Below are positions 23,111-63,100 of a stretch of DNA of 64,000 bases, piece by piece (within the stretch, counting starts at the first letter, position 1; every line of letters starts with the position of its first letter). The notes under the pieces are model-generated. The model made no database searches, had not been told where the DNA came from, and saw nothing but the letters and a program-made list of their open reading frames with translations. The translations under genes and the position numbers were made by a program. The stretch is from assembly GCA_002245135.1 (NCBI GenBank), contig NGBS01000016.1, forward strand, positions 62,001-126,000, in the 5' to 3' direction. The stretch is from Proteromonas lacertae. Lineage: Eukaryota.

Positions 23111-23865
23111 AAAACAATACACAAAATATAATCTCTCTTTTACTTTTATTAGAAAAGCATTTTAGAACATTCGGAATTGTTTTCTTACATTACTGATACC
23201 TTTTTGAGTTACACTTTCGTGAGCTACTACATTGAAACGAATGGTTTTACTTAAAGGTCTGCATTGAGCTAAAGTTACTACATCTCCTTCTTTTACACTG
23301 AAACAGGGACTGCAGTGAGCTGGAGTATTACTGTGTCTTTTTTCATATCGACGATATTTTCTTATATATTGTAAATAATCACGACGAACTATCACAGTTC
23401 TCTTCATTTTGGTTGATAATACTAAACCCTTTAAAATACGACCTCTCACATTAATATTTCCTGTGAAAGGACATTTGTTGTCGATGTAACTTCCCTAAAA
23501 CAATATTATAAATATTCATTTATACTTGAGTTGCTGTCTTGGGGGCTTTGAATCCTAAACCTACATCTTGAACCCATCTGGATTTAGCTCCTTTCTTTGA
23601 ATGTAAACCATTTCCTAAGAAAACTGGTCTTTGCTTTTGGAACGCATTTTCGTTCTATATACATATATATCATTTTTATCATACTTGACCAACGATTTCG
23701 TTACTCATTTTATAAAAATGATAAGAGAGATTATGAAAAAAACAAGTGTCAAATTTAATAGAAATAAAGAAAGAGAAATTCCCTTAAAAATTTTACCCCC
23801 TTCTTTTCAAATATGTTTGACTCGTTATGAGAATCAAGCCTAGATGTATTTTTCTTATTTTTATG
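23111..23865. repeat. Left arm of ~755-bp inverted repeat (partner 27836-28590)
   Basis: Reverse complement matches the right arm in every line compared, including introns and flanks; identical ORF translations. Confidence 0.95.
23162..23708 (-). CDS. RPS11: 40S ribosomal protein S11 (uS17), copy 1, two introns
   Basis: [19 protein letters not shown]...RYEKRHSN...[13 protein letters not shown]. Confidence 0.97.
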
Positions 23866-27835: not shown

Positions 27836-28590
27836 CATAAAAATAAGAAAAATACATCTAGGCTTGATTCTCATAACGAGTCAAACATATTTGAAAAGAA
27901 GGGGGTAAAATTTTTAAGGGAATTTCTCTTTCTTTATTTCTATTAAATTTGACACTTGTTTTTTTCATAATCTCTCTTATCATTTTTATAAAATGAGTAA
28001 CGAAATCGTTGGTCAAGTATGATAAAAATGATATATATGTATATAGAACGAAAATGCGTTCCAAAAGCAAAGACCAGTTTTCTTAGGAAATGGTTTACAT
28101 TCAAAGAAAGGAGCTAAATCCAGATGGGTTCAAGATGTAGGTTTAGGATTCAAAGCCCCCAAGACAGCAACTCAAGTATAAATGAATATTTATAATATTG
28201 TTTTAGGGAAGTTACATCGACAACAAATGTCCTTTCACAGGAAATATTAATGTGAGAGGTCGTATTTTAAAGGGTTTAGTATTATCAACCAAAATGAAGA
28301 GAACTGTGATAGTTCGTCGTGATTATTTACAATATATAAGAAAATATCGTCGATATGAAAAAAGACACAGTAATACTCCAGCTCACTGCAGTCCCTGTTT
28401 CAGTGTAAAAGAAGGAGATGTAGTAACTTTAGCTCAATGCAGACCTTTAAGTAAAACCATTCGTTTCAATGTAGTAGCTCACGAAAGTGTAACTCAAAAA
28501 GGTATCAGTAATGTAAGAAAACAATTCCGAATGTTCTAAAATGCTTTTCTAATAAAAGTAAAAGAGAGATTATATTTTGTGTATTGTTTT
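27836..28590. repeat. Right arm of ~755-bp inverted repeat (partner 23111-23865)
   Basis: Reverse-complement identity with the left arm; degenerate extension to 27821/23880 with three mismatches. Confidence 0.95.
27993..28539 (+). CDS. RPS11: 40S ribosomal protein S11 (uS17), copy 2
   Basis: Same as copy 1; introns 28017-28046 and 28176-28206. Confidence 0.97.
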
Positions 28591-31653: not shown

Positions 31654-33328
31654 TCAAAATACTTTTGATGCTTTATACACATAAGGTAATAATGCCTCAA
31701 ATGATACATATATTGTTTTTGCTTTATTCCTTGCTAATTTCATTAAATTTGTCACATTTATGGATTGATCAAGAAGATTAATAAGACATAATGGAAATGT
31801 ACTTACATCTCTATCCTTCTTTGTATTTATACCAACCTTCTTTTTTGAGCTAATAAAGAATAAACCAAAATCATTACATCTATTACCTTTATACTTTTTA
31901 TATAAATTTATAAGAATATCAACCATTTCAGGTGATAATTCATGTCTATTACTTATAGTAAACTGAATGCCCATTGGACCAATCAATGCATCAATATCAG
32001 GAAATCCTCCATCGTAACTTAAATCGAAAATATCAATTTCTTTTTTATTTATTTTTGTAGTTAAATCAGCATCATCTTTAACATTCACTACTTTAACATT
32101 TGTATTTAGTTTGTCCAAATCTCTTTTTATCTTGACTTTTGTCATTTTAGGTTTTATGTCTTTATATATTTTATCTATCATCATTTCTTCGAAAAATTTA
32201 CATACTTTAATCATTTCATTTATTACCATTTCTCTAAATATTTTATTTTCTTTCAATAGAAATAACATTATATTTTCATATACACAACCTTTCATACCTC
32301 CATTTGTAGATTTGAACAATATATTCATCGTATCTTTACACTCTTCTATTGAAGTAATTTTGAATAATATTTTCTTCGCTATTTTTCGAATTGTTTCAGA
32401 TACAAATATCAAATGATTGGATTGAGTAACATCTTCTAATGTTTCATATATTAATATTATACTATATTTTATATTATCATTTTCATCTTTTGAAAGAGAA
32501 GATACATTAATTCCTTTAATTATGTCTTTCAGTTTTCTATTTTCTTTCATTTTAGTAAGTACATATTTTATCATTTCTTCATTACATTCTTTATTTTTTA
32601 TTACACCTCCATAATATTTATAATTCTTTCTATATAGTTTTATTTTTTCTTCATAATCAGATGAATCTGTAGGAAATGCTTTTGAACCTTCTCTTAATTC
32701 AGATTTATTTATAAAATGGTTATTAGGTATAATATATTTTGGATCTTCTAGAATTATTACTTTTTCTACTTCTTCTTTTGTAAATGGAGGGATAAACATC
32801 ACCAATGGACATCTTTTACTCTGAAATGTTTTATACTTTTTGTCAGATGGATCAGCTAATAATATTATCATTTTTGCATCACCATAATCATCTTCTCCAA
32901 TTACAGTCCCATCACAAATTAATATATAATCTCTTTCTTTGTGAGATTCATTATAACCACCTATTCTATTTCCATTTTTATCTATATGTTTTATTCTAAC
33001 TACTCCATTCCTTTTTTCATGAATAAATTCTTTTATAAAATTCGCAAATATTGATTTTCCTATTCCAGCTTGTCCATATATTAAAAAACTCTTTTGATGT
33101 CTAAAGTTTAAATCCATATCTTCAGGATAAACTTCTTTCAAAATTGATTTATAACATTTTCTCCTTAAATAACACCGATTATAAGCAAATACTTTAAAAT
33201 CATCTCCTGATAATTCACATAGTGGAGGCGGATTTTCATTCATAACTTCATTATCTTCTTCTCTTTTTCTTCTTTTCCTTCCTTTTCCACTTCCACTTCC
33301 TATTACTTCATCCTCCTCCTCCTCCTCC

Positions 33329-33362
<34 letters not shown>

Positions 33363-35163
33363 CTCCTCCTTCTTCTTCTACTCTTCTTCTTTTTCTTCCT
33401 ATTATTTCTCTTACTTTTCCTCCTTTTCCACTTCCTCTTCCTTCACTTCCTCTTCCTCTTCCTCCACTTCCTCTTCCTTCACTTCCACTTCCACTTCCTA
33501 TTACTTCATCCTCCTCCTTCTCCTCCTCATCATCATCCCCTCCTCCTTCCTCTTCTTCTTCTACTCTTCTTCTTTTTCTTCCTATTATTTCTCTTACTTT
33601 TCCTCCTTTTCCACTTCCTCTTCCTCCACTTCCTCTTCCTCTTCCTCTTCCTCCACTTCCTCTTCCTCCACTTCCTCCTCTTCCACTTCCTCTTCCTATT
33701 ATTTCTCTTACTTTTCCTCCTTGATTTTCATCTAAACCACAATACTTATATTTGCACTTTTCACTATTATTATATTCCTATTATATTATATTTAAATATA
33801 TTATATATACTTTGATTGATTCTTTTATTTTTGTTTCATCAGTTTCTAATTCATCACCATCTAATAATATCTTTATAAATATTCCATTCATTATTAAATC
33901 AAAATAATTATTTTCATCCAATATAAAATAAACAAAATGTTTTCCACCATCAGGATGATGAACTAAGATTGGCTTTTCATAATTCAATTCAAAACTCTTA
34001 TCTTCTTTCGTATTTAATTTAATCATTTCCATACTCAATTCATATGATATCTTCTGTTTCATTGCAACTCTTTTCATTTCTATATCTTTCTCTATTAAGT
34101 CTTTTCTTTTCTTTTTAATATCTTTCTTAATTTGATTATAATATCCACATAATTTATTATATTCAGTTACATCTTTAGGTGGATAGAATTTATACACTAT
34201 GTATTTTTCAACTTGCTCAGATATGAATTTTAAATGTTCTTTTGGTACTAATACTTTATGACCTAATTTGTTATTCATTTTTTCTTCATAATCATATTTC
34301 AATATTATATTGGATAATGGTTCTTTTGTTAATCTTCCTTGTTTCATATAATTACTAACAAAATTATTATAACCAATTGTGCCTACTACACTATCTATTA
34401 ACTTCACATAATAATCCCAATAATCTCTATTACCATAATTCTCTTTATATAAATGATGGAAGTAAATTTGTCTTGGAATATTTCCATATATTTCACATAT
34501 TTTTTCAAATTCTTCATCCCTGCCAATATCTATACATGTATCAAACCATTTTACTACTTCATCATAACTTAATGTTTCGAAATATAATTCAGTTATATTA
34601 TCTCTACCTTTGTATTCTTCAACATTCTTTTCATCAGGAGAACTAATGGATATAACTATATTATTTTTATCATATTCACCATTAAAAGTATCAACTATAA
34701 TTATTGAATCTGTAACAACATTCAAGTTTGAATTTACCTTAGAAATTTGTTTGGTATTTTGGTTAAGTTCATATACTTGATTACTAAGTGGATTACCATT
34801 TTTCTTTCCTTTTACCACGTAAATGCCTTTTATTACTCTTTCACCTGTATCAATATGTTTGTAATCATCATGGATCTTTAAACGATGTAAAAGGTAATAC
34901 AAAAAACTTGTTTTACCTATACCAGGTTGGCCACTTATAATCATCGTTGGATACTTATTGGATTTCATCAGTTTAATGATATCATCATACATTTGCGAGT
35001 AACACACTCTTTTTAAAATCATTCTTCGAGGAAATTGAAAAACTTTAACAGTATCATCTCTAAAATGTAAAAAATCTTTATCAAAATCTTCTAAGCTGTT
35101 CATTATCTTCACAAAATTATCTGTTTCTTCTCCTTCATTATTATTACCTGCAGGACTACTCAT
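31654..35163 (-). CDS. Tandem Crinkler/RHS-like P-loop NTPase + restriction-endonuclease-like protein (~1158 aa, one intron 33778-33810)
   Basis: Two Walker A motifs (GQPGIGKT; GQAGIGKS) each followed by Walker B, SSP/ADP, Y-F/P-x-x-S/T-x-E-E and G-x-I-P-R-like motifs; terminal FPDIDALI...IQFTISNRH; phase-0 intron joins both ORFs in frame through a 178-codon linker. Confidence 0.7.
33244..33722 (-). repeat. Purine-rich degenerate tandem repeat (period ~180-200 nt) encoding Gly/Arg/Ser, poly-Asp/Glu and RKRRR blocks
   Basis: cctattacttcatc at 33299 and 33497; cctattatttctcttacttttcctcc at ~33398, ~33581 and ~33696. Confidence 0.9.
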
Positions 35164-36438: not shown

Positions 36439-36520
36439 TTTTTCAAATTACTAAAATATATTCGTTTCTTAAAGAAATAAGCTTGATAAAAGCTTGATTT
36501 ATAAGAAATTAAAATTATCG

Positions 36521-38057
36521 ATGAATAGAATATCTATAGGAATTGATTTGGGTGCGAAATATTCATGTTGTACATACTTGAAACCTGGACCCTCAGTGGG
36601 CCAATACAATTATGTAGAATTTGAGAATGGTTCTAGATTTCTGGCCTGCTATGTATGTTATAAGCAAGTAGAACCAAAAGTTAGTGTAGGAGAAGAGGTT
36701 AGAAACCTTATTATTCGTAATCTACCTTTCACAGTTTATAATACAAAGAGATTGATAGGTAGAAAGTATGATGAATTAATTATAGAGAATTTGAAACATG
36801 TTCCATTTGAAATAATCAATTCAAACAACATTCCTATAATAAAGATCAGATTGGGAAAGACCCAGTTACAATTAACCGCTGAAGATGTTGTATCAGATAT
36901 ACTGTTAAAAGCAAAAAATGTTGCAGATGAACAATGTTTCAATAAACCAAATTTAAAAACCAAAGCAGTAATATCAATTCCAAACTCATACAAAAACAGA
37001 GAAAGAATGAAAACTATAAAAGCAGGCGAAAAAGCTAATTTAGAAGTAATTCGACTAGTAAATGAACCAACAGCTTCAGTGGTAGGATATGTTTATAAAA
37101 AGTTTAAATTAGGTGTAAAAGAGAAAAAAAGATGTTTAATAATTGACTTTGGTTCTACTTCATTGAGTGTAAGTATTGTAGATACAAATACAGAAGAAAC
37201 GAAAGTGACAGTGATTGCTTCTAGTGGTGATAATCATTTAGGTGGTGAAGACATGGACTATAATATATTAAACTATTTTTCTGACAAATTGATGAAAGAA
37301 AAGAAATTCAATTTGTATGAGAATAAAAAAGAATTGGTTTTAATGAAAAGAGCTTGTGAAGAAGCAAAGCATCAATTAATTAAAACTGATTCAGTAAATG
37401 TAGAATGTGATATATTAAAAATTAAAAAGATTGATAGTATACTAACAAGAGATGTGTTTCAATAATTTAAATCAACAAATTTTTGATCGTTATATTTCTA
37501 TTATTGAGAAATTGTTTGAAAGTTCTAATGTATCAAAGGAGAGTATTGATATTATTGTATTAGAAGGTGGAGGAAACAAAGTTTTACAAATACAAAATCT
37601 CATAAGTGAATCATTTAATAGTGTATATATTTACAAGAAAGTATTTAAAGAAGAAGTGTCTCAAGGAGCTGCTGTTCTTGCTTTACCCCATGAAATTGAT
37701 TATATGAGTGTAAATGATGTAATATCATATGATGTACTTGTGTGTACTAAAAATGGAGAAAAAATTAAAGTAATTTCAAAATTTTCTCCAATTCCTTGTG
37801 AAAAGGTTGTTACTATTACTACAGATAAAGATAATCAGAATTTTATTGATTTTAGTATATATGAATGTGATGATGAGAATAATTTGAAATATGGTTGTGA
37901 GATGACAGATTTTAGGTGTGAAAACGTTCCTCCAACACGTAAAGGTATGGTAAAAGTAGAATTGAAGTTTATTTTCAACATGAGTGGAGTATTTGTAATT
38001 GATGGATTAGCTAAACTTCCAGGAACATCACAAACAATAACTGTCAAAGAAATATAA
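36521..38057 (+). CDS. Divergent intronless Hsp70-family protein with a +1 frameshift near 37458 (pseudogene or assembly error)
   Basis: GIDLG, TKRLIGR, RLVNEPTA, GDNHLGGED, TDKDNQ; two overlapping ORFs join if one T is removed from gtgtttcaataat. Confidence 0.8.
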
Positions 38058-38124: not shown

Positions 38125-40262
38125 TTATCCCATTTGTTTTCTTGGAATTGCACAAGCGAAATATTGCATTACAAATTTCTTCATTTCTTCATACTCCATT
38201 ATTCCTTCATATTCATAATAAGCGCCATCTTGTAATATATCAATCACAAATAAAGCAGGAGTTCTTTCAATATGACATAATCCTCTAATTTGTCTACACA
38301 CTTTATTATCATCAGTATTTGCTAATACAAAGCTAATATTATCTCTCTTTAATTCTTTACCAATCTTATTAAAATTTTCAATTATTTGTGCATCATTACC
38401 ACTAATGCAGAATACACATGGTTCTTCGTTAATCTCTTTTGGATTATCTTCTACATTTAATATTGGATTAGGAATCCAAGGATATTCATTAGGATGATGT
38501 TCTAAAGCATCTCTTCCATCACTTCTTATTTTATTACCATCTTTATTATAAATTACAACTGATGGAATTCCAGTAATGTTTAATATGTTATATAACGGCA
38601 TAATTCTTTTATCTTCAAAGGGTATTCCATATAATCCTAAATGATTGAAATATTCATTATATTCGTTTTGATCACTATCTGTTGAGACCCATATAATTGG
38701 AAAATCAACTCCATCAGCAGATAGTTGTTTATCAATATCAATTACTTGTGGTACAAAATTACGACAGACTGGACACCAACTTGTACTGAATAAAATAGCA
38801 AATATTTTGTTATTAATAACATCTTTAGCTTGTACAATATTATTAACATCACCTCCTTTATATAAATCACCATCTAATAAATCATATATCGTTTGCTTAG
38901 TCCAAGGATACTGTAAATGTCCTTCTAAATCTTCTTCTATCATGGTATAAGCATTATCATTTAAACAATTTCCATTATTATCTAATACAATAACAGTTGG
39001 AATTCCTGTCACTCGATATTTAGCATTTATATCTTTACGTGTCTTTTCACTACTAAATGGAATGCTATACCAAGGCATCTCCTTCATATATTCATTATAT
39101 TCATTTTCAGTTTTATCCCAACTGTTATATATTATTTCAAATTGAACTTGATCTTCTTTCATCTCATTGTACAATTTTGATAATTTTGGAAAAAACACTT
39201 TATCAGGTTCACTCCATGAACTACTACAATAAATCAACGTAATTTTATTCTCCAATATTTCATCCACTAAAACGGTATTCTGCTTGTTATCCAATACATT
39301 TTCTCCAACTATTTCCTTGATTATATCCAATGATGTTTTTTCATTATTATTATTAAGGGATTTCTTCTCATTTCCATCTGCAGCTGCTACACTATGTTCC
39401 ATCTCCGTTATATTTGATAATTTCACTTGCAAACCAGCTAAAGAAACCGACACTTCTGATATTTTTATTCTTTTTTCTTTATCTTTTACTATCGTCTTAT
39501 CTAATAAATCATTAATCAACGGAATGTCAGTTAATGGCTGATAAGCTCCTACCATTACTAAGTTCTTAATGTCAGGGATAGAATGACCTGGAAATATATG
39601 TGTTCCAGTTACTATATAATATAATATACAACCAAAACTCCAAACATCTGTAGTAAAATCAATCTCTTCTTCTTTAAACATTTCTGGACTCATATAATAA
39701 TATGTACTGATTGGAATTGTATCTTTTGGGGTTATTTCGTTTTTCATATAGTCTGATAAACAACACTTGCTCATTTCATCATTTGAGAAATAAACATTAG
39801 ATGGCTTGAGATTTCCATATACACAGCCGTTATCATGTAAGCATTGTAAGCCACTACATATACTGTTTACAATACTCTCTAAAGAGTTGTTTTCTTTGAT
39901 ATCTGGGTATTTTACGTTGGTTAAATTAGATTTATATTTTGGCATTTGTAAATCGACTATATGTTTATCTAATAAATATTTTCCTTCTATTGGTACAAGA
40001 AATTCATTTTTTAATGAGTATAACTTTGCCAGTTTGTCAATATAATTCTTAATCTTATCCTCTGCTATATCTCCTGTTTGAATTGTTTTAAGAATACTTA
40101 TTTCTTTAGTTTTTTTATGCTTAACAATAAACACTTTGCTATCATTTCTGATAGAAATCTCTTCCTCAACCTATATTTTATAATATGCAATACATATACA
40201 TTTAAGGGTAAAGATGGATCTGGCAAAACAGCTCTTGGCGAGTGAGAAGCTGCTCCACCCAT
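38125..40262 (-). CDS. Predicted N-myristoylated pseudokinase fused to nucleoredoxin/tryparedoxin-like thioredoxin domains
   Basis: Exon 1 MGGAASHSPR (intron 40171-40199); kinase fold YGNLKPSN, SDY, YMSPE, DVWSFG; Trx domains SSSWSEPD...GIPTVIVL and STSWCPVC...GIPSVVIY; EYPW linkers. Confidence 0.85.
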
Positions 40263-40411
40263 AAAAATAACGAAATAGCTGTTTCAAAAAAATTACTGTT
40301 TCTTTTTTTCTTCAAAACAAAATAAAATAAAATAAAACATAAAAACATATAAGAGATTATTAAATCATAAAAACGACTTTTATATACAACGCAAAATAAC
40401 ATTTACACAAT

Positions 40412-41314
40412 TTACAAATTAATTTCTTCATCACCAGAACATGAAACATCACTTATTCTGATTGGCACAGGCGAAGGTAAATTAGGATCCACATTTAAAG
40501 CCATTGGAGAGGGAGGACATCCAACAGAACTTGAAAATATGGGAATCTCTGTATTAGATATATGAGTCTGTGGAGGTGATATTATAATTACATTATTAGC
40601 CCCACTCTTATTGTTATTAAATGATTGGATTGGAATTGTGGAAGAGGTGAAGAAATTAGGAGTTGTTTTTCTGAGAGTTTTATTACCTATTTCACTCTTT
40701 TGATCATCTGTAGTAGTTGTATTTGATAACTCGATCTTCTTTTGATTGAATGTTGAAGATTTCGCATATGCGTGATTTGTATATAATTCATTACCATTAT
40801 TACTGTTAGAATTACTATCAGGTAATGATTCTGTCAATAAACTACGATGATGAGTTCTATTCTTCTTAATACTTATACCTTCATTATAATTGCTTGGAGC
40901 AATGACATTAATTGGTATTGTACTTGCTGCTGGAAAGTAAACATGGGAACTTACTCCTATTAAGGATCTAGTATGCTGATGATGATAATATAGCCTATTA
41001 GGTGTAGATGCATTCATTGGTATTGAAAATTTATTACTTATTATTGGTTGATCAACTATTTTTTCCTGGTCACTTAATGTAGTATTACTCTTTTGGTCAT
41101 TAATTATTGGAACTGTACTTAGAGAAGGGTAAGAAGATTGTTCTGAAGATATTGATATATGACTTTTCTTTTTTCTTCTTGGGGGAGGAGATTGAGCTAT
41201 TTGCATTTCTGAATCAACATCTGGGTCGTAATTTGCTATTTTTCGACTGTCATTATTTCTTCTGCATGATATAAAATTACACAAAGCAGTAAATGTACTA
41301 CAACACGATTTCAT
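40412..41314 (-). CDS. Hypothetical disordered Ser/Asn-rich protein with Cys-rich N-terminus
   Basis: Uninterrupted 300-aa ORF; MKSCC...C...C could be palmitoylated. Confidence 0.6.
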   Translation of the reverse strand: MKSCCSTFTALCNFISCRRNNDSRKIANYDPDVDSEMQIAQSPPPRRKKKSHISISSEQSSYPSLSTVPIINDQKSNTTLSDQEKIVDQPIISNKFSIPMNASTPNRLYYHHQHTRSLIGVSSHVYFPAASTIPINVIAPSNYNEGISIKKNRTHHRSLLTESLPDSNSNSNNGNELYTNHAYAKSSTFNQKKIELSNTTTTDDQKSEIGNKTLRKTTPNFFTSSTIPIQSFNNNKSGANNVIIISPPQTHISNTEIPIFSSSVGCPPSPMALNVDPNLPSPVPIRISDVSCSGDEEINL

Positions 41315-41616
41315 TCCAGAATAAATATATCTCTTGAACTGTAACCCTATATAATTGTTTGTATAAGCTAAAAATATTGAATGGTAAGTTTATAAATTAT
41401 TTTAAATAAGATATCTTATTTATAAAAGACTAGAACATAAAATGAAAAAAACTGAAATTCTTCGAAAAAATACCCAAAAATTTTAAAACAATGAATTTAC
41501 AATATTTAAAAGGGATGATAAATCTCATTAACTATTTCTTTTCATAACTACAGAAGGATTGGCTTTATTGTACCCATTCTTAATAAAGATTAACGAACAG
41601 ACTTAGGTCTTTTTGC

Positions 41617-42495
41617 TTAAGCCAAATCAGCTTCTTCTTTAGTTGTAAATACTGTGTTTTTGAATTTATTATCAGAATTTTGTTTTGAATCAATATAATG
41701 TTCAACTATTTTCTCTATTACAGCATCTTTTTGTTCATTATTCATTTCTTCAAAACCTCTAAACCACATCAACATATCTTTGGCTTTGCTAGCATAAGTA
41801 CATGCCAAAAAGGAATTACCACAATTTTGAACTATCAAAGAGACTATTTCTTCATCTACTTTTTCTAATATTCCTTCATTTAGATTGGGATTATTGAATT
41901 CTGCTATTACTTCCTTCTTCAAACTGCCACTTATATTAATTTCATTCTCAGAACCAACAGTTATATATCTTTCAATCATTTTCTTTACTCTCTCAACTAT
42001 TGTGATAGAAGCAGATGGAGATCCAAGTGTATGAGATAAATAGTATAATCTAAAGCATTATAAATTGATTGAATTATACAAACTATCTCCATTATACAGT
42101 AAATCCAACATTTCTTGCAGTTTTGTTGAATTCCAATCATCTTCTGGATGTTCTGCATGTAGATATGCTATTGCATAATCTTCTACATAATCAAAAGAGA
42201 TATTCTTATATCTATCTTCACCACATTCTTGGAACATACTGACAGTGTATTTTTTAACTCTTACAGTAGTATTACTTATCATTTGAGCAACTCTATCAAC
42301 TGCATCTAAATTATTATGCAAAGACTCTTCTAATTGTGTTGTTACATCATTAATATAACCTTCTAATGATTCTAAATCACATGCATATATTCTTAACAAA
42401 AATAAAACATTATATTGATACTCTCCATATAATAAATAACTCTTTCCATAGGAAGATGAAAAATACATTAGTATTACGTAAACCACTATCGTCTA
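41617..42495 (-). CDS. RGS-domain protein with one hydrophobic segment; start unresolved
   Basis: IERYITVGSENEINIS...KKEV RGS motif; a short intron joins the two ORFs in frame. Confidence 0.55.
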
Positions 42496-42668
42496 ATAGA
42501 ATAAGAATGCATCATTCACACAAATTATAAATTTATATAAACACAATTATATCATCACTTATCTTATTTTTAACAATTTTTAAATTTCATTTTATCAAGC
42601 CAAATATTCATTTAGTCGTTTCATTATTATATTCTTATCTTTTTCTCTTTATATACTATTCGTATGAT

Positions 42669-44171
42669 ATGAATAAAACCAAAAATATAATAAAGAAGAC
42701 ATATAATATACGAAAAATTCGTGAGAATGATTTGATGAATTATTGTGAAAAAGTGAAAATAATCGAAAGAATGAGAGTAGCAAACTACTGTCGAATATTA
42801 AGTGTGAATGTAAGGCGTCATGAATTGTATGTGAAACGATATACATACGAGTGTAGTTTAGGAGTGTTGTTATATAATAGTGAGTTAGAAACTGATTTTG
42901 TTGATGAAATAATATGTAAATTATTAAGAAGTGTGATGATGTTGAATGAATTGAATATATGTAATGGTAATTTGAATATGAATAATATGTTATTAGATGA
43001 AAATAATGAAATATATATAAGTGATTATTGTTTAAATGAAATTCGTGATTTGAATGATATAATAATAGAAAACTATAAATATTTAAGTCCAGAGAGTATA
43101 TTATATGGTAAAAGTGTAATTGAAAGTGATATTTGGAGTGTTGGTTTAATAATATATAAGCTATTGAAGAAAGTTGATATGATAAATGGAAAGAATAAAG
43201 AAGAGATTGAAAATATAATATTATCAATAGAAAACAAAAGAATTAAGTTGAAACTAAATGCTGATGATGATGCTGAAGATGAGAATTGTAAAAGATTGGA
43301 AATATATGAAAATATAATCAATGGTTGTTTAAAAGTGAATATATGATGATCGAATGATGATAGATGATATAATGATTGTAATAAATAAAAATGTAGAAAA
43401 TAAAGAAGATAGGAAGAGATATGAAATGCTATATAATAATATATCACTGTTTAAATACTATGAGATTATAAATAAGATAAAACATCAAGAAGTATTGAAT
43501 GTAGAAGAAATCCAATTTATCTGTAATAATGAAGATATAATCTACAAACTGGTAACACATTATAATCGTCACAATTCACTATATGATTTCTGTATATTGA
43601 AATCCATGAAGTGGGATAGCGAATATAGAATCATTTTATCGTGTTGATTGGCCACCAGTAGGTAATAATGCAAGAGAAATAAAAATGATAAGTTCTTTCG
43701 CTTATATTGGATATGATATTATCCTTAAACATTATTACGTATGATATAACACCTACAGATTGTACTTGAATTTATTTCAATACTTTAAATGTTTCCCTAA
43801 TGTTCAATATATCAATTTGAAGAGGTCAAAATATTGGAGATACAGGAGTGATGTTATTAATTGATAGTTTCATCTATTTTGAATGTCTGAAAGATTTAGA
43901 TATATCTGAAACTGGAATTAGTAATGATTCAATAAAATATTTGAGTGAAAAGAAAATAAGAATGTCAAATCTAATCACATTAAGAATTCAGAAGAATAAT
44001 TTCAACAAAATGATTGCAAAATACATCCGATTATCAATTGAATATTTACCTAAAATAGAAAATATTTATATAGAAGGATTTAAAGAAGAAACATCAACAA
44101 TCGTATCATTACAAAAGATGTATCCAAAAATGACATTTAAATCCCACAAATTAGTGATTAATTTTTTATAA
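42669..44171 (+). pseudogene. Pseudokinase-LRR paralog disrupted by several frameshifts
   Basis: CNGNLNMNN, SDY, YLSPE, DIWSVG, then LRRs (LKDLDISETGISND); frame breaks near 43344, 43640 and 43820 not explained by clean introns. Confidence 0.6.
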
Positions 44172-44619
44172 TCTAGACTTTAGTTTGTGTTTTGATTTTA
44201 TTCTTCTCTTATTGAATAGGATGTCTAACCACTGTCATACATAATTCTATTTTACACAAAAAAGAGTTTGAGTATTTATGTTTACATCATTTTTCATATT
44301 TCAATATATTTATATTTCACACAAATTACAAATGTTTTTGGATCTTCATAGAAATGAATACTTTTGTTTTCTATTCAACTGTTGTATTATTATAATTTGT
44401 AAGTTATTATTCTATACTTTATTAACTATATCGCAATGTTGAAGTAAATTCTATGATGTGATAAAAGGTAATAATCAACCATTTGTTTTAACAACCATTG
44501 GGAATTTCAAATTTGAGATTTAATAAACATCAATAAATACAATAGAAATATTCAAACAAAAATTATATTCAAGTATTAATTAAATGTATACAAGTTTTAC
44601 TATCATGTATTATATATTG

Positions 44620-46108
44620 CTAAACTTGAGGCACTTCTACTACAGCAGCTGTAGTCAGAACACCACAAAATATTTGTTTCACAATACAATCTTTAAAAGC
44701 ATCAACAACTCTTGGAGTTACTTGATCTTCGTCAGTTTTATATCCTAATCTACCATCATCACATTTCCCCCATGTATACAACTGTCCAGTATTAGCCAAT
44801 GCAGCAGTATGTGCAGTACCACACGCTATATCTACAATACCTTTATTCTGTAAGATTAGATAAGGAATATATGCACTATCTTTACTACCATGCCCTAATT
44901 GACCTGATTTGCAACTACCCCAACAATATAAATCACCGTACTTCGTTAAAGCTGCAGTATGCCAACAACCACATGATACTTTTGTAACGAATTGACTTTC
45001 GATATCTTTCACTATTTTAGGCTCAAAGCAATGACCTGTTTTACTATGTCCTAATCTACCATCATCATCAAATCCCCAAGTATATAACTTACCCTCTTTA
45101 CTCAATGCAGCAGTATGATGTCCACCACAAGATACTTGCACTATATCAATATCCTTCAATGATTCTACTAATTTCGGATATGATTGTTCAGAACCATCTT
45201 TATGACCCAATCTGCCACCATTTCCATATCCCCAGGTGTATAATTTATGATCATTTTTAGATAAAGCACCACAATGCAATCCACCACAGGATATACTCTC
45301 AATTGGAATATAATCAGCGAAGTATAAGACGAGCATAGGCTTGTCATATGTCAAATTATTACCATGACCTAGTCGACCATCTGAACCTAAGCCCCATGTG
45401 TATAATTTACCTTCATTTGTTAATGCTGCTGAATGTAACTCACCACACTTTATTTCTATTATATTTTCATTGATTAATGTTTGCACTAGTTTGGGATATA
45501 ATACATCAAGTGTATTCCCATGTCCTAGCCTTCCATCTCCTCCATAGCCCCAACTATAGAGTTTACCTTCTTTAGTCAGTGCTAATGTATGAGATGTACC
45601 TAATGATATCTATTTATATCATATTTATAACAAATACTTGTGTAATTGATAATGTATTAAAAGCATCTAGTATAATAGGTATATTTGAGCCACATCTATC
45701 TCCTGTTCCTAATTGTCCATGTTCACCTTTACCCCATATATATGTATAAGTTGTTGTTGGTACTACAATTCCGAAATAATCGATTTCATCCTGCAGTACT
45801 TCCTTTGGTATATTCTTAGGACAATATATATTTCCAGTTCGATAGCTATATATATAAAATTATATTTTCATAACATACAAATGAAGAATAGCTTCAAAAG
45901 CATCAGGATTTCGATCAAAGAATATTTCACCATTCGAATCCTTCTTTAATAAATACGTATTTCTTGCTGAAAACATTGTTCCTAACAAAGATTCAGGATA
46001 TGTAGAAAATGTGGATATTTGAGTTTCAAATCTTCTACCACCTACGTTAATAATGATACGGCTATCAATATCTCTGTATTCTTCTGTATTTTTGGATTGG
46101 AATGACAT
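44620..46108 (-). CDS. KCTD/T1-type BTB domain plus RCC1 repeats
   Basis: IIINVGGRRFET...YPESLLGTMFS...FFDRNPDAFEAIL; about seven repeats of CG..HTAAL..G.LYTWG...GRLGH. Confidence 0.85.
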
Positions 46109-46229
46109 AGCACTCAAGAAAGATTTAGTTTAAAAACAATTTTGATTTTCAAACGCCAAACTCTTAATTTGGGGTACATTTTTGGTAATTTTTTTTTATA
46201 ACGAAAATCGTTATACGTTTTAAAACTAG

Positions 46230-49200
46230 ATGACTGACTTTAAAAACTTAGTAGAAGGATATAAAACAGTATATTGCATTTGATTCTAATGTTTAGCATT
46301 GGATCGATTCGAAATTTAACTCATCAGTATTTTGTTCTACGACTATTTATGTAGGTTCAATCATTAATTGAAAAAACTGGAACTACATGTGTATATTTAT
46401 GTAGTGATGAAAACTCAAAGAAAGCTTCAGTACTAAAATTGATTTTTACTGATGGTATATCTGAAGAAAAGATTAAATTCTATGTATATTAACTTATATT
46501 ATTTATTAGGAAGCATGCATATCAGTGTTAGACGTAGGGCAAGGTTTCATAGCTAAATCCGAATATGCATATATTCCAGACAAGCACCTTATAGCATTAT
46601 CAATGAGACATTATCATAGTTCTGTTGCAATGGAAAATACACTCAATAATTTCGATACAGAAAGAAGATGTGATTTATTAAATGAAGTCTTAGAAACAAT
46701 AGAAGCTCTATTTGCATTAAAAATAACTCATGGTAATATTAAGCCTTCAAACATATTTTTATGTGAAGATGGTCACTTTTACCTCAGTGATGCTTGTAAG
46801 AATATGTTATACATTGACAAAGATGGATGTAAAATTACCAATATCTCCACCTTTGAATACTCAAGTCCAGAACTATTAAAAGGAGAAAGTTATGATATAG
46901 AAAGTGATGTTTGGAGCTTTGGTTGTTTATTATATTATATGTTTAGTGGCATTTCACCATTTACAGATGATTCAATAGATGAAGTAAAGACTCATGTAAT
47001 GAATGTGGAATATGATGATTTAGACTGTGATTCAACAGGTGATTTAACTCAATTATTACATAAAATATTAACAAAAAATCCAAAAGAAAGATTAACTCCA
47101 GAACAACTTAAGAATGAATTTGAAAGTATAAATTAATAAAATTTTATTATTTTCTAAATATATAGTTTTAAGTACAACTTTAGTCTATCTAACACCATCA
47201 GTAACTAGAAAAACCACATCAAAGAAGAAGCAAATTAACCAAATGATGAGTAATATAAAGAAAGTAATAGAAACAGGTAAACCAGTAACTCAATCGGATA
47301 TAATCCAAACCATCTTCTCCAATGAAGAATTATTACCTAAAATCATTACAGCCAATAATATATCAAAGAATCCATTATATTTCTTCTTGTTAATGTATTT
47401 AGCCTTAGAAAAAAATGAAGAAATTATTACAATCAATGAAAAGATCAAGATTGATGGACCATTGAATGAAAAGTTATGGAAAGCCATAAAAGGAACAAGA
47501 TATCTTAGTTTTGAAGGAGATTCAGTAGGTAATAAAGGTATGGAGTATATAGTGAATAATTTCAATGCATATAACAATATTGAACATTTGAATCTTAATA
47601 AAGTTGGTATTGATGATAGTGGTATTAAATATGTGATAGAACATTTAAACCAATTACCTAATCTTAAAGAATTGAATATTTGTGATAATGATGTTACATT
47701 TCAGACTTTGGAATATTTGACAAATGAATTGAAGAAATATCCAAAATTAACATGTGATTTGAAGTGTATATATTTTTATTTAATATTATATATATAGCAT
47801 TATATATGAATTGTGTTCATGGAATGTTGACTGAAAATACGCTTATCACACAACCAGCAATGTTAAAAGGCATTCATGATAATAAAGAATGGTTAGATGA
47901 AATAGTAGCTGAACAAAAGAAGAATAAGAATAAATACTACTTCATATTGCTAATCAATATATGTTTAGAATTCCCTGATATTAAAGATAGACTACATAAA
48001 GAGTTAAGTATACCAGAAACTAGTGTAGATTATGTTATTGTTAATTCCATCATGTATAGAGGATATGATTTTGAAAATGTTGGTTTAGGAGATGATGGGA
48101 TAAAATATATTGTTGAACTCTGTAAATCAACTCCAAATATAGAAACACTTATTTTAAATGGTAATATATTGACTGACAAAGGTATTGAATCTTTAATCCC
48201 TGCATTTAGTTATATTACAAGTTTAAAAGAATTGAGTTTGAATGAGAATTTTATAGCTGATGTTGGTTTAGAGAAACTAGTTAAAGGATTTCCATCTCTA
48301 CCGAATTTAGAAGCTTTAAGGTTGATCAAAACATGTATAAGTGCTGATGGTATGAAAGTATTAGCAAGTGGTTTAAAAGATATGAAGAAATTAAAAGAAA
48401 TTGTTTTATCTTTGAATGATATCTTTGACGATGGTATGAAGATATTATGTCCAGAATTAATTCATTGTCCATTAGAAACAATCAAATTACAATATTGTAA
48501 TATCACAGATACTGGTTTGGTCTTGTTTTGTAATGTTATGAATAAATTGACAAATTTAAAAGTTGTCGCTTTAGGTGGAAATCAAATTAGTGGTGATGGA
48601 ATTAAAAAATTTGCAGAGTGTCTAAAATTCACCCCCAAAATGGATTATTTATCCTTATGGACCAATCATATTGGAGATAATGGAGCTATAGCGTTAAGTG
48701 AATCATTTAAATATATTCCATTGTTAACAAAGTTAGAAATTGGTGATAATCAAATAGGAGATTCAGGAGGTAGAAGTATTGGAAATAACTTATCATTTTT
48801 AAAGAAATTAGAGAAGTTAGAAATCGGTGAAAATCCAATAGCTGATATTGGCTTTGGTTTAATTGGTTCTTCATTAGAAAAGACATTAGAAATAAAGGAA
48901 ATATATTGTAATAATAACTTATTATCAGATTCAGGAGCTATTTCACTCGCTGATGCTATAAAGAAGTATAAAGGTTTAGAAATATTAGATGTAAGTAACA
49001 ATAAAATAACAGATGTGGGAATAGGACAGATCGCGGATGCATTAAATGGTAAAACAACTCTTAGAGAATTATGGTTTGCTGAGAATAGATATAGTGATCA
49101 AGGAGTTGTTGCATTATCAAAACCATTGAGTAAATGTGTAAATATGACGAAGTTTGTTATACATACAAATACTGTAGGTGATGTTGGAATTAATGCATTA

Positions 49201-50076
49201 AGTGATTCAATTAAGAACTTTAAGAATTTAATGAATTTGGATGTGAGTAATAATAAAATTGGGGATGATTCATGCCAAAAGTTTGGGGTTGCTTTACAAT
49301 CATTGGTTAATTTAAGAGAGTTTTATATGAATGATAATCTTGTTACTGATAATGGAATGATGAAATTGACAGTTGGTATTCAGAAGTTGGTGTTATTAGA
49401 AAGATTGGAATTACATAACAACAAAATAAGTGATGTTGGTATTAATTCATTAGCCAAAATATTTAAGAACATTACCAATTTATCTGTATTAGGTTTAGAT
49501 AATAATGAGATTGGTCCAGATGGTGCGAAAAGTTTGGGGGATGGATTTGCATTTCTTCCAAAATTAGAGAAATTAGATATTGGTTTTAACCATGTTACTG
49601 ATATTGGAGTGAGTTATATAGCTGATTCTCTGAAACATATTCAAAAATTAAAGGAATTAGGCTTAGCTAACAATGAAATTGGTGATGATGGTTTGAAATC
49701 ATTAAGTAACAACTTGAAATATATTCCAACTATTGAAACTATATTTTTAAGTAGAAATGTAATTGCTAATGAAGGTATGAAAGCATTTGGTGCTAATTTG
49801 AAGTCAATTCCTGAATTGAAGGAGATGTATTTTGCTATTAATAAAATTGAATCTGATGGATTTAAAGGATTGTGTGATAATCTTAAGTTTGTTCCACAGC
49901 TTGAAGTTCTTGCGATAGATTATAATTCTATATCAGATGTTGGATTTTCATCATTGAGTAGGGCAATGCCATTCTTGAAGAATCTCAGAGAGTTGTGGCT
50001 GAAAGATAATCCTATCAAGTTAGATTTAATGTCAAATCTACAAAATAAATACCAGTATGTAGAAATTAAATATTAA
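46230..50076 (+). CDS. Pseudokinase fused to a long array of 28-residue ribonuclease-inhibitor-like LRRs, multi-exon
   Basis: Spliced N-lobe from ATG 46230; HGNIKPSN, SDA, YSSPE, DVWSFG; more than 20 LxxLxLxxNxIxDxG repeats. Confidence 0.85.
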
Positions 50077-60101: not shown

Positions 60102-63100
60102 ATGAAAAATAATATATGGATTATATTTTGTATAATGAATATATATACAGTTGTCGTATATTATTTTCGTTTCCTGTATAGATTAATGGTTATTCCTTCC
60201 AGTTTAAGTATAATGAGCTAGGGGACAGATCTTGTAACCACAACGACATACGGTTGGAAGTCTTAAGTAGTACTAAGAATGAGTTTACTATATTTGGTAT
60301 GAATAAAAATGAAATATTCTATAGAGGTGCCAACTTGGACTGGATACTTGATGTGGAAAAAACAGATCAATGATTTAGGAGGAATATGTATAGGAGGAGA
60401 CTCAACAAGAAATATTTACAATGAATGTACAAGTGGAGTAAGAAAGAAGGTTTGTTTAGTGATGATTGATGTTTTAGATGAAGTATTATTTAATTATTAA
60501 TATATCAATTGATATAGGCAATAAACGAGGCAAAATATCACAGTATTGTCAAAGAGTGGGTAGATGAAATAGCTGAAAGAGATTTAGTTAAAAGACCTCA
60601 CTTTATATTCACTCCCATGGGTGATAATTATAACACTATGCGTATATAAAAACTAATTACTTCAATCAATTATAGTTGCTGATTATATATATCAAAAATA
60701 TGGAGATTTTGGATTTAACACCTTTCTCATAGGCTCTTGTGCACCCTCAAAAGCATTTAAAGAGATATATAAATATATGTTTACACCACTAATGAAAACT
60801 GAAGAAAGTTCAACATCAATGATTGAATTCTTTGAAAAACGGTTAAATTATCACAGATGGGTGATATTAACAGATACTAAGACGATGGATTATTCAATAC
60901 AATCAGTAAATGCATTAGTAAGTAAATACAAATCAGTTATGAAACATCCAATGGAATTGTTATTGAAAAGATGTTCTAGCCAAGTATATATTATCATATT
61001 TTTGTAATAATATTTTTAGGTGGGTAATATTTCCGCTCCAAATTGTGATTCAATCAAAGATTGTAACAGTGGTGAAGATTGTCAATATCCGATGGTAAAT
61101 GTATCATCTCCAATTGCCTACAGGAATTATAACTCTGTGAAAGAATGGTTGGAAAAAGTTAAAGAATTAGATCCAGATGTCTTATTCCTTAATAATGATG
61201 CATATTTTAAATCATTTTTAGAAACTTTGAAATTAATTGGATATGCTCCAAAAGCTATAGTTTCATTGATTAGAGGTTATACATTAGAAGAACCACCAAA
61301 TTATGGTTTAGATAATACTTATGTATATTATGAAGCTGCCTTTACTAAATCTCATGGTTATGGAGATGATAGATTAAACAGTTACTTTGGTTCATCCTCA
61401 AAATTCGTGAAATATGTTGAACAGCATTTTCATGACTTTTTCAATGACACATTATACCCGCAAATGGAAGGTTATGAGTTGAATGGTGATTATGAATATA
61501 TCGCAAGAGGTGCTTTAATAGGAGTAACTGTACAAAGATTAATTGAATTAACTTCTACTGAGAGACAAGTTGATTATGATGATGATGAATCATTCTTTAC
61601 AGTTCAGACTATAACCACAATAAGAGACAGTATATATATTTATATATATATATATTATTATTATTGAATAGTGTTAATTAATCATTTTTCTGTATGTAAA
61701 AATGAGGATGATTATACATACACTCAACCATGTAATGTATTAGAATGTCCAACAGAATGTGTCGCATGGGATTCATTCTTTGGACCTGTTGAGATTGATG
61801 CTGATGGAATGAATGGAAAATTAGAAGGAGCATTAGTGCAAATATTACAAAATAAAACAGAAGTTAATATTGTTGCACCATCAAACTCACCATCTTGTAA
61901 CAAAGACGAACATGTTTGTACAGAAGAAAACGGTTATAAAGATTGTACCTGTCATTATGTATCACCACCACCATGGGTATGGAGACCAATTGAACAGGGA
62001 AAATATTATACAGATACAGGAATGTTGGTGTTATTATATGCAATGAGTGGTTTATTAATAGTTGTTACCATTGCGATGTATGTCTTTTATTTTCAAAATA
62101 AGAGAATGTTTCGATTGAATCATATACCTATTTCTACATCTTTATGGTTTGTTATTCCTTTAATATCAGCTGTTACTCAAATCACAATTGTTGGAACTCC
62201 AAATGAATTTGTTTGTTCTTTAGAAATGTGGTTACATTACATGGAATTAGGCTTTTTCACTTGGGTTCCATATTACATGAATAAAGAAGCTGAAATTGAA
62301 TCTTTGACTGTTATTAAAGCAAGATATGAGTTAGTTGGAATTTTTTTTTATTATTTTATTATTTCATGTAAGTTATTCGTTGATCGAATTCCATCTTTAT
62401 ATGATGAGACAATTGAAGGCAATTCATTTATTTTTTATTATTATTGTAAAGAATATCCAACTACTGAACTAATGGCTTATTGTATTTGGGTTTGCGTTTT
62501 AATACAGATGTATTATATTGTATTTAGTAGTTTAAAAAGAAATTTGTTATTGTTTTGGATTCAAGTTTATTATTTGTATATATATATTATTTGTGATTTA
62601 TAATATAGATTTGTTTCCATCCTTTTTGCTTGTATATTATTGGTTGTTTGGCAGAAGGAACCGCTGAGTAGAAGTAGTATTAATTTGGTTTATTCATTAC
62701 ATTGCATATCAGCAATTTTATTTATTGTACCATTTCCATTTATAATTTTCCATAAACCAACTCAAAAATCAATGAAACCTTATACATTCTCATTCTTTAA
62801 GAAGGAAAAGAAATTAAAACATTTCTTGAAGAATAAACTGGATAGAGCTCATATGATATGTTATGCTGAATTATTACAAATGAAGCAATAGTATATTAAT
62901 TATATATTTATTTATTAAAATTAGTATTGAATTTTATGGTGATATTCTGGAATTTGAAAAAATTAAAGAAAAGACAGAATTAGAGATAAAAGCATATGAA
63001 TTATTACATCAGTACATTGAATCTGAATTAATTGCACTATCAGATGACGAAAAAACTCAACTGACCAATCATTTTGCAGCAATTGTATAGATTTTATTCA

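Follow-up and report, generated by a model that had tools for sequence, protein, structure and literature searches.

A lineage-restricted family of pseudokinases with differing C-terminal tails in Proteromonas lacertae

Three genes in a 64,000-nt stretch of Proteromonas lacertae DNA (GCA_002245135.1, contig NGBS01000016.1, positions 62,001 to 126,000 of the forward strand; hereafter "the window") encode kinase domains that belong to a single clade of at least 36 domains, and 34 of these 36 lack the catalytic aspartate. Of the interpretation proposed in a first-pass annotation of this DNA, the lineage-restricted pseudokinase family with differing tails has held up, while other parts have not; the family is sizeable and apparently undescribed, with no paper on it found in a literature search. 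We favor, at a probability of roughly 0.6, the reading that it is an expansion of scaffold pseudokinases like that of the Giardia Neks plus one receptor-like polymorphic member. The coordinates of the three genes, K1 to K3, are given in Table 1.

Table 1. Location of the three pseudokinase genes and their parts in the window.
Feature	Positions	Strand	Basis
K1 pseudokinase-nucleoredoxin, 702 aa	38125..40262	-	gene model, Pfam, orthologue P0001
K1 pseudokinase domain	39424..40170	-	Pfam Pkinase, alignment
K2 pseudokinase, helical cap, short LRR-like tail; broken frame	42669..44171	+	alignment to P0035
K2 segment matching hypervariable patch (P0035 residues 305-360)	43620..43790	+	alignment to P0035
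K3 pseudokinase + cap/LRR block 1 + cap/LRR block 2, 1230 aa	46230..50076	+	gene model, Pfam
K3 internal duplication, helical cap + first LRRs	47267..48405	+	29% identity over 157 aa

The first-pass annotation quoted six motifs from the catalytic loop and the DFG site along with two N-lobe strings, and all of them are present in the translations of K1, K2, and K3. Pfam Pkinase matches the three domains with E values of 1e-25, 2e-13, and 7e-26, respectively. The notion that these genes "share one degenerate kinase" stands insofar as all three are Pkinase domains of one clade, but their pairwise identity is merely 20% to 28%. They are the sole copies that the family HMM detects in a six-frame translation of the window and are separated by three unrelated genes. 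Both K1 (a single 29-nt intron at 40199-40171) and K3 (five GT-AG introns of 26 to 40 nt at 46269-46296, 46327-46354, 46484-46509, 47126-47165, and 47766-47797) are intact, and one phase-0 intron position is common to the two.

Trees were built from 10 family and 22 other domains and later from 36 and 34, with kinases returned by the searches as outgroups. K1, K2, and K3 fall into the same clade with a support of 87 in another tree, 96/85 at 10 versus 22 domains, and SH-aLRT 97 at 36 versus 34, values that may be inflated by AT-rich composition and long branches and that come with limited outgroup sampling. Together with the shared intron position, this clade supports the common origin suggested previously. 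The family is also set apart by a score gap in the representative search, where 26 new domains reach 149 to 214 bits and the next match 110. At the DFG site, the motif D[YAC]xxN is found in all 10 seed members versus none of 80 other kinases, and across the 36 domains both DFG and the HRD arginine are missing throughout while Asn171 and Asp184 are invariably kept. The catalytic position is occupied by Asn (32 domains), Ser (2), or Asp (2; P0110 and P0129); K1, K2, and K3 all carry Asn in place of the HRD aspartate and are thus pseudokinases by sequence definition. The beta3 lysine is present in 20 of 21 domains that cover it (a few of these calls lie at fragment starts and are uncertain), and an APE-like SPE is strongly conserved. 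A kinase fold is predicted for P0035, which was modelled at pLDDT 70 to 95 and has protein kinases as its Foldseek matches. The xGN loop alone had been tried as a marker in a scan of metagenome contigs, but none of the 80 loci retrieved (23% to 37% identical) joined the clade, and they score at most 111 bits on the family HMM versus 217 to 288 for seed members. Their position outside the clade indicates that the HGNLKPSN loop arose repeatedly and is not diagnostic by itself; the combined signature of xGN loop and DYxxN should retrieve the family from any related genome. Searches of the ESM Atlas returned generic kinase clusters and LRR leads below 0.9.

The usual layout is a pseudokinase followed by a helical cap and then RI-like LRRs: a cap, LRRs, or both make up 13 of the 17 readable tails, with 19 of the 36 domains coming from gene calls that extend fewer than 90 residues past the kinase and leave the tail out of view. 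A first comparison of the caps gave a weak match (hhalign probability 16%). With a cap profile from which window sequences were left out, K2, K3, and P0039 score higher than each of 300 shuffles, and the matches of P0035 (7 of 300 shuffles) and P0110 (8 of 300) are borderline. This predominance of cap and LRR limits the earlier idea of swappable sensors, which is right in that tails differ and in that there is one possible tail swap (P0034, below), while the nucleoredoxin tail is limited to one orthologous pair. No transmembrane family is among the Pfam matches.

K1 carries, behind its kinase, an atypical Trx, a WCPVC-containing Trx, and a b'-like Trx domain. Pfam matches two stretches to PF13905 (E 3.5e-43) and, weakly, one to PF13848, with WCPVC in the second domain, and we take this layout of tandem Thioredoxin_8 and b'-like domains to be that of a nucleoredoxin. 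The K1 kinase lacks the Gly-loop glycines, keeps the beta3 lysine, and reads YGNLKPSN at the catalytic loop and SDY at the DFG site. Its N-terminus MGGAAS is predicted to be N-myristoylated; P0132 and P0154 likewise have the MGxxxS motif at residue 1, P0215 has it at an internal Met, and 1 of 118 non-family proteins contains it. An orthologue, P0001, is 81% identical and belongs to a cluster of 13 sequences. The nucleoredoxin is a one-off fusion, and it offers a direct test case for redox-gated scaffolding.

The LRR_6 matches of K3 sit in its last exon, where the repeat units are mostly 28 residues apart, and the long, RI-like array of block 2 is contained in one 2.3-kb exon. Relatives were found for the kinase exon (P0099, 96% identical) and for the cap/LRR1 exon (P0074, an orthologue with 85% identity). 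P0099 had been missed by a word-index search, whose blanks are therefore uninformative.

Forcing the K1, K2, and K3 subfamilies into one clade was rejected (p-AU 0.002), and this result and the low pairwise identity dispose of a young tandem array; the copies are not each other's closest paralogues. All three are instead anciently diverged members of an old family, each with an orthologue elsewhere. Birth-and-death evolution, which the first-pass annotation had invoked for K1 to K3, is at odds with this ancient divergence and with the small variability among orthologues, namely 0 of 174 columns in the first LRR block of K3 (9 orthologues; the long LRR exon had none for comparison) and 8 scattered columns in K1.

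K2 can be aligned along the entire length of its intact orthologue P0035 (486 aa), relative to which it carries +1 frameshifts near 43338, 43633, and 43820 plus one in-frame stop. Its tail has no Pfam LRR match and is LRR-like on weaker evidence than that of K3. Neither cryptic introns (stops remain with the candidate GT-AG stretches, which also run into residues that P0035 conserves) nor a spliced upstream exon (no GT donor within 42500-42614) account for this structure. The data do not support the view, in its original form, that K2 is a decaying LRR copy: its kinase branch measures 0.29 versus 0.36 for its orthologue in the largest tree (36 plus 34 domains; 0.50 versus 0.30 in the smaller tree of 10 plus 22), and identity to P0035 past the frameshifts is 58% to 69%, as high as before. 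Since the branch is not longer in the largest tree and identity is undiminished, the loss of frame is either very recent or an assembly error. The latter option, in which the organism has an intact gene and the assembly possibly collapsed two haplotypes, comes close to even odds. All three frameshifts are +1 insertions and two of them flank the polymorphic patch described below, the last 107 codons are free of stops, all 8 sequences of the K2 orthologue cluster are intact, and an HSP70-like gene 6 kb from K2 likewise carries a +1 shift. However, the window contains 18 unbroken ORFs of at least 300 aa (26 kb) and the other junctions inspected resemble GT-AG introns, so that assembly errors are not general, and the catalytic-loop Pro retained in P0035 has been lost from K2 as well.

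The 8 K2 orthologues concentrate 34 of their 40 variable columns in a single patch of 56 residues where the LRR region begins, compared to 15 in the best random window. The patch sequences form three mosaic haplotypes with 21 to 29 differences inside and at most 3 across the other 430 residues, and the patch is also the most diverged part of the window K2 (around 30% identical to P0035 versus 52% to 69% elsewhere). No DNA donor repeats for it were detected between positions 36 and 51 kb of the window. The patch may be a fast-evolving binding surface, with an AlphaFold model that stays below pLDDT 50 over most of it and hence does not give its surface placement, and the K2 subfamily behaves, as far as sequences tell, like a polymorphic recognition protein. 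This subfamily is well suited to ask whether balanced polymorphism exists at intracellular recognition proteins of unicellular protists. Diversifying selection on the patch would extend innate-immune-like receptor evolution to a new architecture; without such selection, the family would be a second, independent expansion of the Giardia-Nek type.

It seems likely that the kinase domains of this family, without catalytic Asp and DFG, bind ATP but serve as scaffolds or switches rather than catalysts. Mg-ATP would be held, as in HER3 or JAK2 JH2, by the beta3 Lys, Asn171, and Asp184 that the family retains, with the degenerate or absent Gly-loop making ATP binding uncertain. The LRR tail would bind a partner or target, and the pseudokinase, docked onto an effector such as an active kinase, would relay this. 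Members with MGxxxS would be anchored in the membrane, and the scaffold of K1 could be gated through the redox state of its WCPVC site. For most members, the picture is that of stable adaptors with fixed partners.

An NLR-like cytosolic surveillance system, in which LRR tails sense foreign molecules, the pseudokinase is a shared output, and turnover is driven by pathogens, would fit the haplotypes and divergence of the K2 patch, the presence of no fewer than 32 clusters of the family, at 50% identity, among the 150 matches listed, and the broken K2 of this assembly. A further argument comes from P0034, which matches K1 at 77% identity as far as helix F and at 23% beyond (0 of 1000 permutations; 83% and 70% in the control) and suggests a possible tail swap via recombination inside the kinase, but this is a lone sequence on a 1.6-kb contig that could be chimeric. 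We consider this surveillance role unlikely because the first LRR block of K3 does not vary across its 9 orthologues, the nucleoredoxin domains of K1 are 78% to 93% identical across lineages, and the few differences in the clusters of P0002 (11 of 378 columns; 4 sequences) and P0036 (6 of 181; 4 sequences) are scattered. In addition, the paralogues are deeply diverged rather than recent, and Pfam detects no NB-ARC or NACHT in the ORFs of K1 to K3 or in 33 related proteins. A bolder version is similarly doubtful: this probably gut-dwelling protist would recognize non-self inside the cell through a pseudokinase-LRR system of its own that does without an NLR NTPase. Balancing selection or gene conversion would maintain the mosaic haplotypes of the patch cassette, as happens in plant resistance genes, and recombination inside helix F would re-pair kinase halves with new tails. 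Finally, atypical active kinases using Asn at the catalytic position, or HER3-like low-activity enzymes, could explain the conserved Lys, Asn171, Asp184, and SPE and the Asp of P0110 and P0129, and have a precedent in the trace activity described for HER3 and JAK2 JH2 (PMC4718504), but are improbable given that DFG and the HRD Arg are lost in 36 of 36 domains, that GxGxxG is seen in no member with a visible beta1-beta2 region, and that K2 and P0035 seem to lack those strands.

Several known systems come close to this family. In HER3 and JAK JH2, Asp166 is replaced by Asn yet ATP is still bound, and the one-cation pattern described for them (beta3 Lys, Asn171, and Asp184 kept; PMC4718504) recurs here. 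The present family differs in that its members are not tyrosine-kinase receptors, that DFG is replaced, and that the Gly-loop is more degenerate or absent, and none of the members read pairs the pseudokinase with an active kinase domain on one chain. The Giardia Neks, as described by Manning and colleagues (2011; PMC3218828), expanded in the same pattern but carry TALM-ankyrin repeats and scattered lesions instead of a helical cap with LRRs and one signature (xGN loop, DYxxN), to which our family adds the nucleoredoxin fusion and a focal hypervariable patch that is new here. This likeness is one of pattern and need not reflect descent: the trees included no named Nek, and Nek2 is one of several best PDB sequence matches with similar scores (with MARK, CaMK1, and PDK1, all at 75 to 85 bits). 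Lineage-specific expansion is also shared with Blastocystis ST1 and its cluster of 58 closely related, ST1-restricted STE20/7 kinases (PMC5608401), a comparison by description only in which the main text of the source is without the words "inactive", "LRR", or "leucine-rich". Plant BSK receptor-like cytoplasmic kinases, as portrayed for BSK3 (PMC6336344), carry TPR rather than LRR; MGxxxS is seen in only a few of our family members, and homology is not expected. Stramenopile LRR signalling proteins resemble the family in their diversifying repeat domains, but each of their repeats is a shuffling exon while the K3 array is one exon and P0035 a single ORF, and the family is without ROC-COR or NB-ARC. 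LRR receptor kinases, in turn, place an extracellular LRR N-terminal to the TM helix and kinase, whereas here the kinase comes first and the LRR follows.

The pseudokinase genes K1, K2 and K3 lie among ordinary eukaryotic genes in densely packed DNA of 26.5% GC content and are separated from one another by a Ser/Pro-rich ORF (without a match in a Pfam scan), an RGS-domain gene and an RCC1-repeat gene. The introns of K1 and K3 are of the GT-AG type and 26-40 nt long, and the low GC content and short introns of the window resemble those described for non-human Blastocystis lineages in PMC12129017, whose main text lacks the words "kinase" and "LRR"; the DNA may thus derive from a Blastocystis-like SAR protist. 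Every motif quoted in the first-pass annotation was found in the sequence, and no fourth family copy was found anywhere in the window.

Features in and around the pseudokinase genes (window positions)
Feature	Position	Strand	Observations
PAN-domain ORF, then right-handed beta-helix ORF	17251-19693	+	possibly one secreted or surface protein
MutS-family gene	21077-23042	+	may be meiotic
uS17 (rps11) exon	23162-23494	-	
uS17 (rps11) exon	28207-28539	+	
Gene with two P-loop motifs	31654-35097	-	GQPGIGKT and GQAGIGKS with Gly/Arg/Ser and acidic repeats between them; weak nSTAND3 match (E 2e-4)
HSP70-like gene	36506-38057	+	divergent, directly adjoins K1; Pfam HSP70 matches in both halves; single +1 frameshift near 37450-37460 without intron signal (pseudogene or assembly error)
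K1	40262-38125	-	702-aa pseudokinase-nucleoredoxin; fusion junction within a single open frame
RGS-domain gene	41617-42492	-	E 3e-7; predicted start head-to-head with K2 start, ~220 bases apart
K2	42669-44171	+	broken gene
RCC1-repeat gene	44620-46113	-	between K2 and K3; Pfam E 8e-89
K3	46230-50076	+	intact, 1230 aa: pseudokinase, cap and short LRR block, second cap, long 28-residue LRR array
SPO22/ZIP4-like match	60657-62603	+	weak match (E 0.008); may be meiotic

Relatives were gathered by three word-index searches and a full-scale HMMER search against 1.84 billion representatives; those traced by cluster all come from Logan assemblies, and the matches may derive from several species. In 26 of the 144 new HMMER proteins a domain reaches 149-214 bits against the family HMM (next best 110). 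Together with six earlier hits, this gives at least 32 members among the 150 listed representatives, a minimum since the ranking went by whole-protein score and multi-kinase proteins crowd the list. The common origin proposed for the three window kinase domains is supported: in each of three trees a single branch separates the family from the other sequences (SH-aLRT 87 for 10 family against 80 other rows, 96/85 for 10 against 22, and SH-aLRT 97 for 36 against 34), subject to AT-driven composition, long branches and outgroups without named reference kinomes, and K1 and K3 have in common a phase-0 intron 12 codons ahead of the beta2 valine. The outgroups took in unrelated kinases with an HGNLKPSN-type loop, so this loop alone is not diagnostic, and within this sample D[YAC]xxN in place of DFG is (10/10 family domains versus 0/80 other kinases). 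Loops of the HGN type (metagenome loci L001-L080; ~900 stretches estimated) are widespread among unrelated kinases, both on contigs that are GC-rich and look bacterial and on some AT-rich ones, and the motif therefore arose many times.

Tails could be read in 17 of 36 members (at least 90 residues beyond the kinase), the other 19 being short gene calls, many of which apparently stop at an intron. Thirteen of these tails contain the cap, a helical segment between pseudokinase and LRRs, and/or LRRs. Pfam LRR matches are found in K3, P0110, P0172, P0181 and P0183 and, weakly, in P0070 of the P0037 cluster (P0037 and P0069-P0071, with a Pro-rich linker between pseudokinase and LRR); the remaining cap/LRR tails were assigned by cap match, five of these members being the seed of the cap profile. 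This profile scored K2, K3 and P0039 above all 300 shuffles and was marginal on P0035, the intact K2 orthologue (7/300). Nucleoredoxin tails are confined to the orthologous pair K1/P0001 (2/17), and those of P0177 and P0212 are low-complexity as judged by eye. Given 13/17 readable tails against one pair, pseudokinase-cap-LRR is the default layout and nucleoredoxin a single derived fusion. How tails might change is suggested by the sequence of P0034, a singleton on a 1644-base contig that may be chimeric: it matches K1 at 77% identity up to helix F and 23% beyond (0/1000 permutations), compared to 83% and 70% over the same halves for K1 versus P0001. Furthermore, MGxxxS opens K1, P0132 and P0154, follows an internal Met in P0215 and occurs in 1/118 non-family proteins, recalling plant BSK scaffolds (PMC6336344).

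A recent tandem array is rejected by the pairwise identity of only 20-28% among the window kinase domains and by the rejection of a single clade of K1, K2 and K3 subfamilies (p-AU 0.002). K1 is 77% identical to its orthologues in the kinase and 78%, 93% and 91% identical in the three Trx domains, and the 13 orthologous sequences vary at 8 scattered columns; the cap/LRR1 exon of K3 is 85% identical to P0074, and 0/174 columns vary among nine orthologues. This tempo of old paralogues with stable orthologues is that reported for most Giardia Neks (PMC3218828), and the family resembles a variant of that expansion.

The K2 subfamily differs. Its eight orthologues are all intact (485-486 aa). Of the 40 columns that vary among them, 34 lie within a patch of 56 residues (305-360 of P0035), compared to 15 in the best random window of that size (2000 permutations). 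Three patch haplotypes, carried by 6, 1 and 1 sequences, differ at 21-29 residues inside the patch and at most three outside, and are mosaic in that the left end of the P0035 patch matches P0065 and its right end P0060; from sequence, they may be balanced alleles, recent duplicates or conversion tracts. The patch starts at the cap end and spans the first predicted repeat strand of a low-confidence P0035 model; its fixed positions are barely more hydrophobic than its variable ones (12/22 versus 14/34), a difference too small to indicate surface exposure. The P0037 cluster has a smaller patch within its kinase (9/21 variable columns in residues 70-87), and none was found in the P0002 and P0036 clusters. 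The receptor system proposed in the first-pass annotation is overstated for K1 and K3, while the K2 subfamily remains a candidate; NLR-like surveillance by the whole family appears unlikely. The nearest stramenopile analogy, the immune receptors of PMC3341825, is based on exon-per-repeat shuffling, which is absent here.

Window K2 differs from P0035 by three +1 insertions and one stop, with insertion placement ambiguous within the patch and perhaps two further compensating insertions. The patch is also its most diverged segment (~30% identity to P0035 versus 52-69% elsewhere). The first-pass annotation called this copy decaying; identity is no lower beyond the lesions, and the K2 kinase branch is not consistently longer than that of P0035 (0.34/0.28, 0.50/0.30 and 0.29/0.36 in three trees). 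We lean towards a recent, real loss. Assembly error, a serious alternative at somewhat short of even odds, would agree with the +1 shift in the HSP70-like neighbor, while 18 long ORFs of the window are unbroken.

The family has lost the catalytic Asp and DFG and conserved residues of the nucleotide site. Asp184 and Asn171 are invariant across 36 domains, the beta3 Lys is retained in 20 of the 21 covering it, and intact DFG occurs in 0/36; at the catalytic position 32 domains carry Asn, two Ser and two Asp. GxGxxG is absent from every member with a visible beta1-beta2 region, and K2 and P0035 start just ahead of beta3. HER3 and JAK JH2 similarly have Asn for Asp166 yet bind ATP (PMC4718504), an analogy by which family members would do so too. 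In the predicted P0035 structure confidence is high for the kinase domain (pLDDT 70-95 per block of ten) and low for the tail of beta-alpha repeats, and Foldseek retrieved generic kinases at 14-21% identity. The two domains with Asp, P0110 and P0129, have sisters with Asn (P0151 and P0152) and possibly represent reversion or retained activity within the clade; that the family as such comprises atypical active kinases is improbable. We instead favor scaffold or adaptor proteins (probability about 0.6), whose kinase domains would be Mg-ATP-bound, non-catalytic docking domains, with LRR tails binding partners, some members anchored to the membrane and K1 gated by redox state.

The pseudokinase-LRR family is real and apparently undescribed. 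A full-text literature search, judged by its listings and with most subscription papers outside it, listed no paper dealing with the family, with a fusion of pseudokinase and nucleoredoxin or with Blastocystis proteins that combine a pseudokinase with LRRs. A cluster of 58 STE20/7 kinases specific to ST1, described in PMC5608401, could overlap with the family.

Several neighboring genes merit mention. The first exon of the RCC1-repeat gene may encode a KCTD-type BTB domain, and the gene with two P-loops may resemble Crinkler/RHS-type NTPase proteins. The two uS17 exons, in divergent orientation, are identical at 333/333 bases, which points to duplication in the very recent past, to gene conversion or to a stretch doubled in assembly; their top-scoring PDB chains are 3jbn and 3j7a (Plasmodium), 9ygm and 4bts (Tetrahymena).
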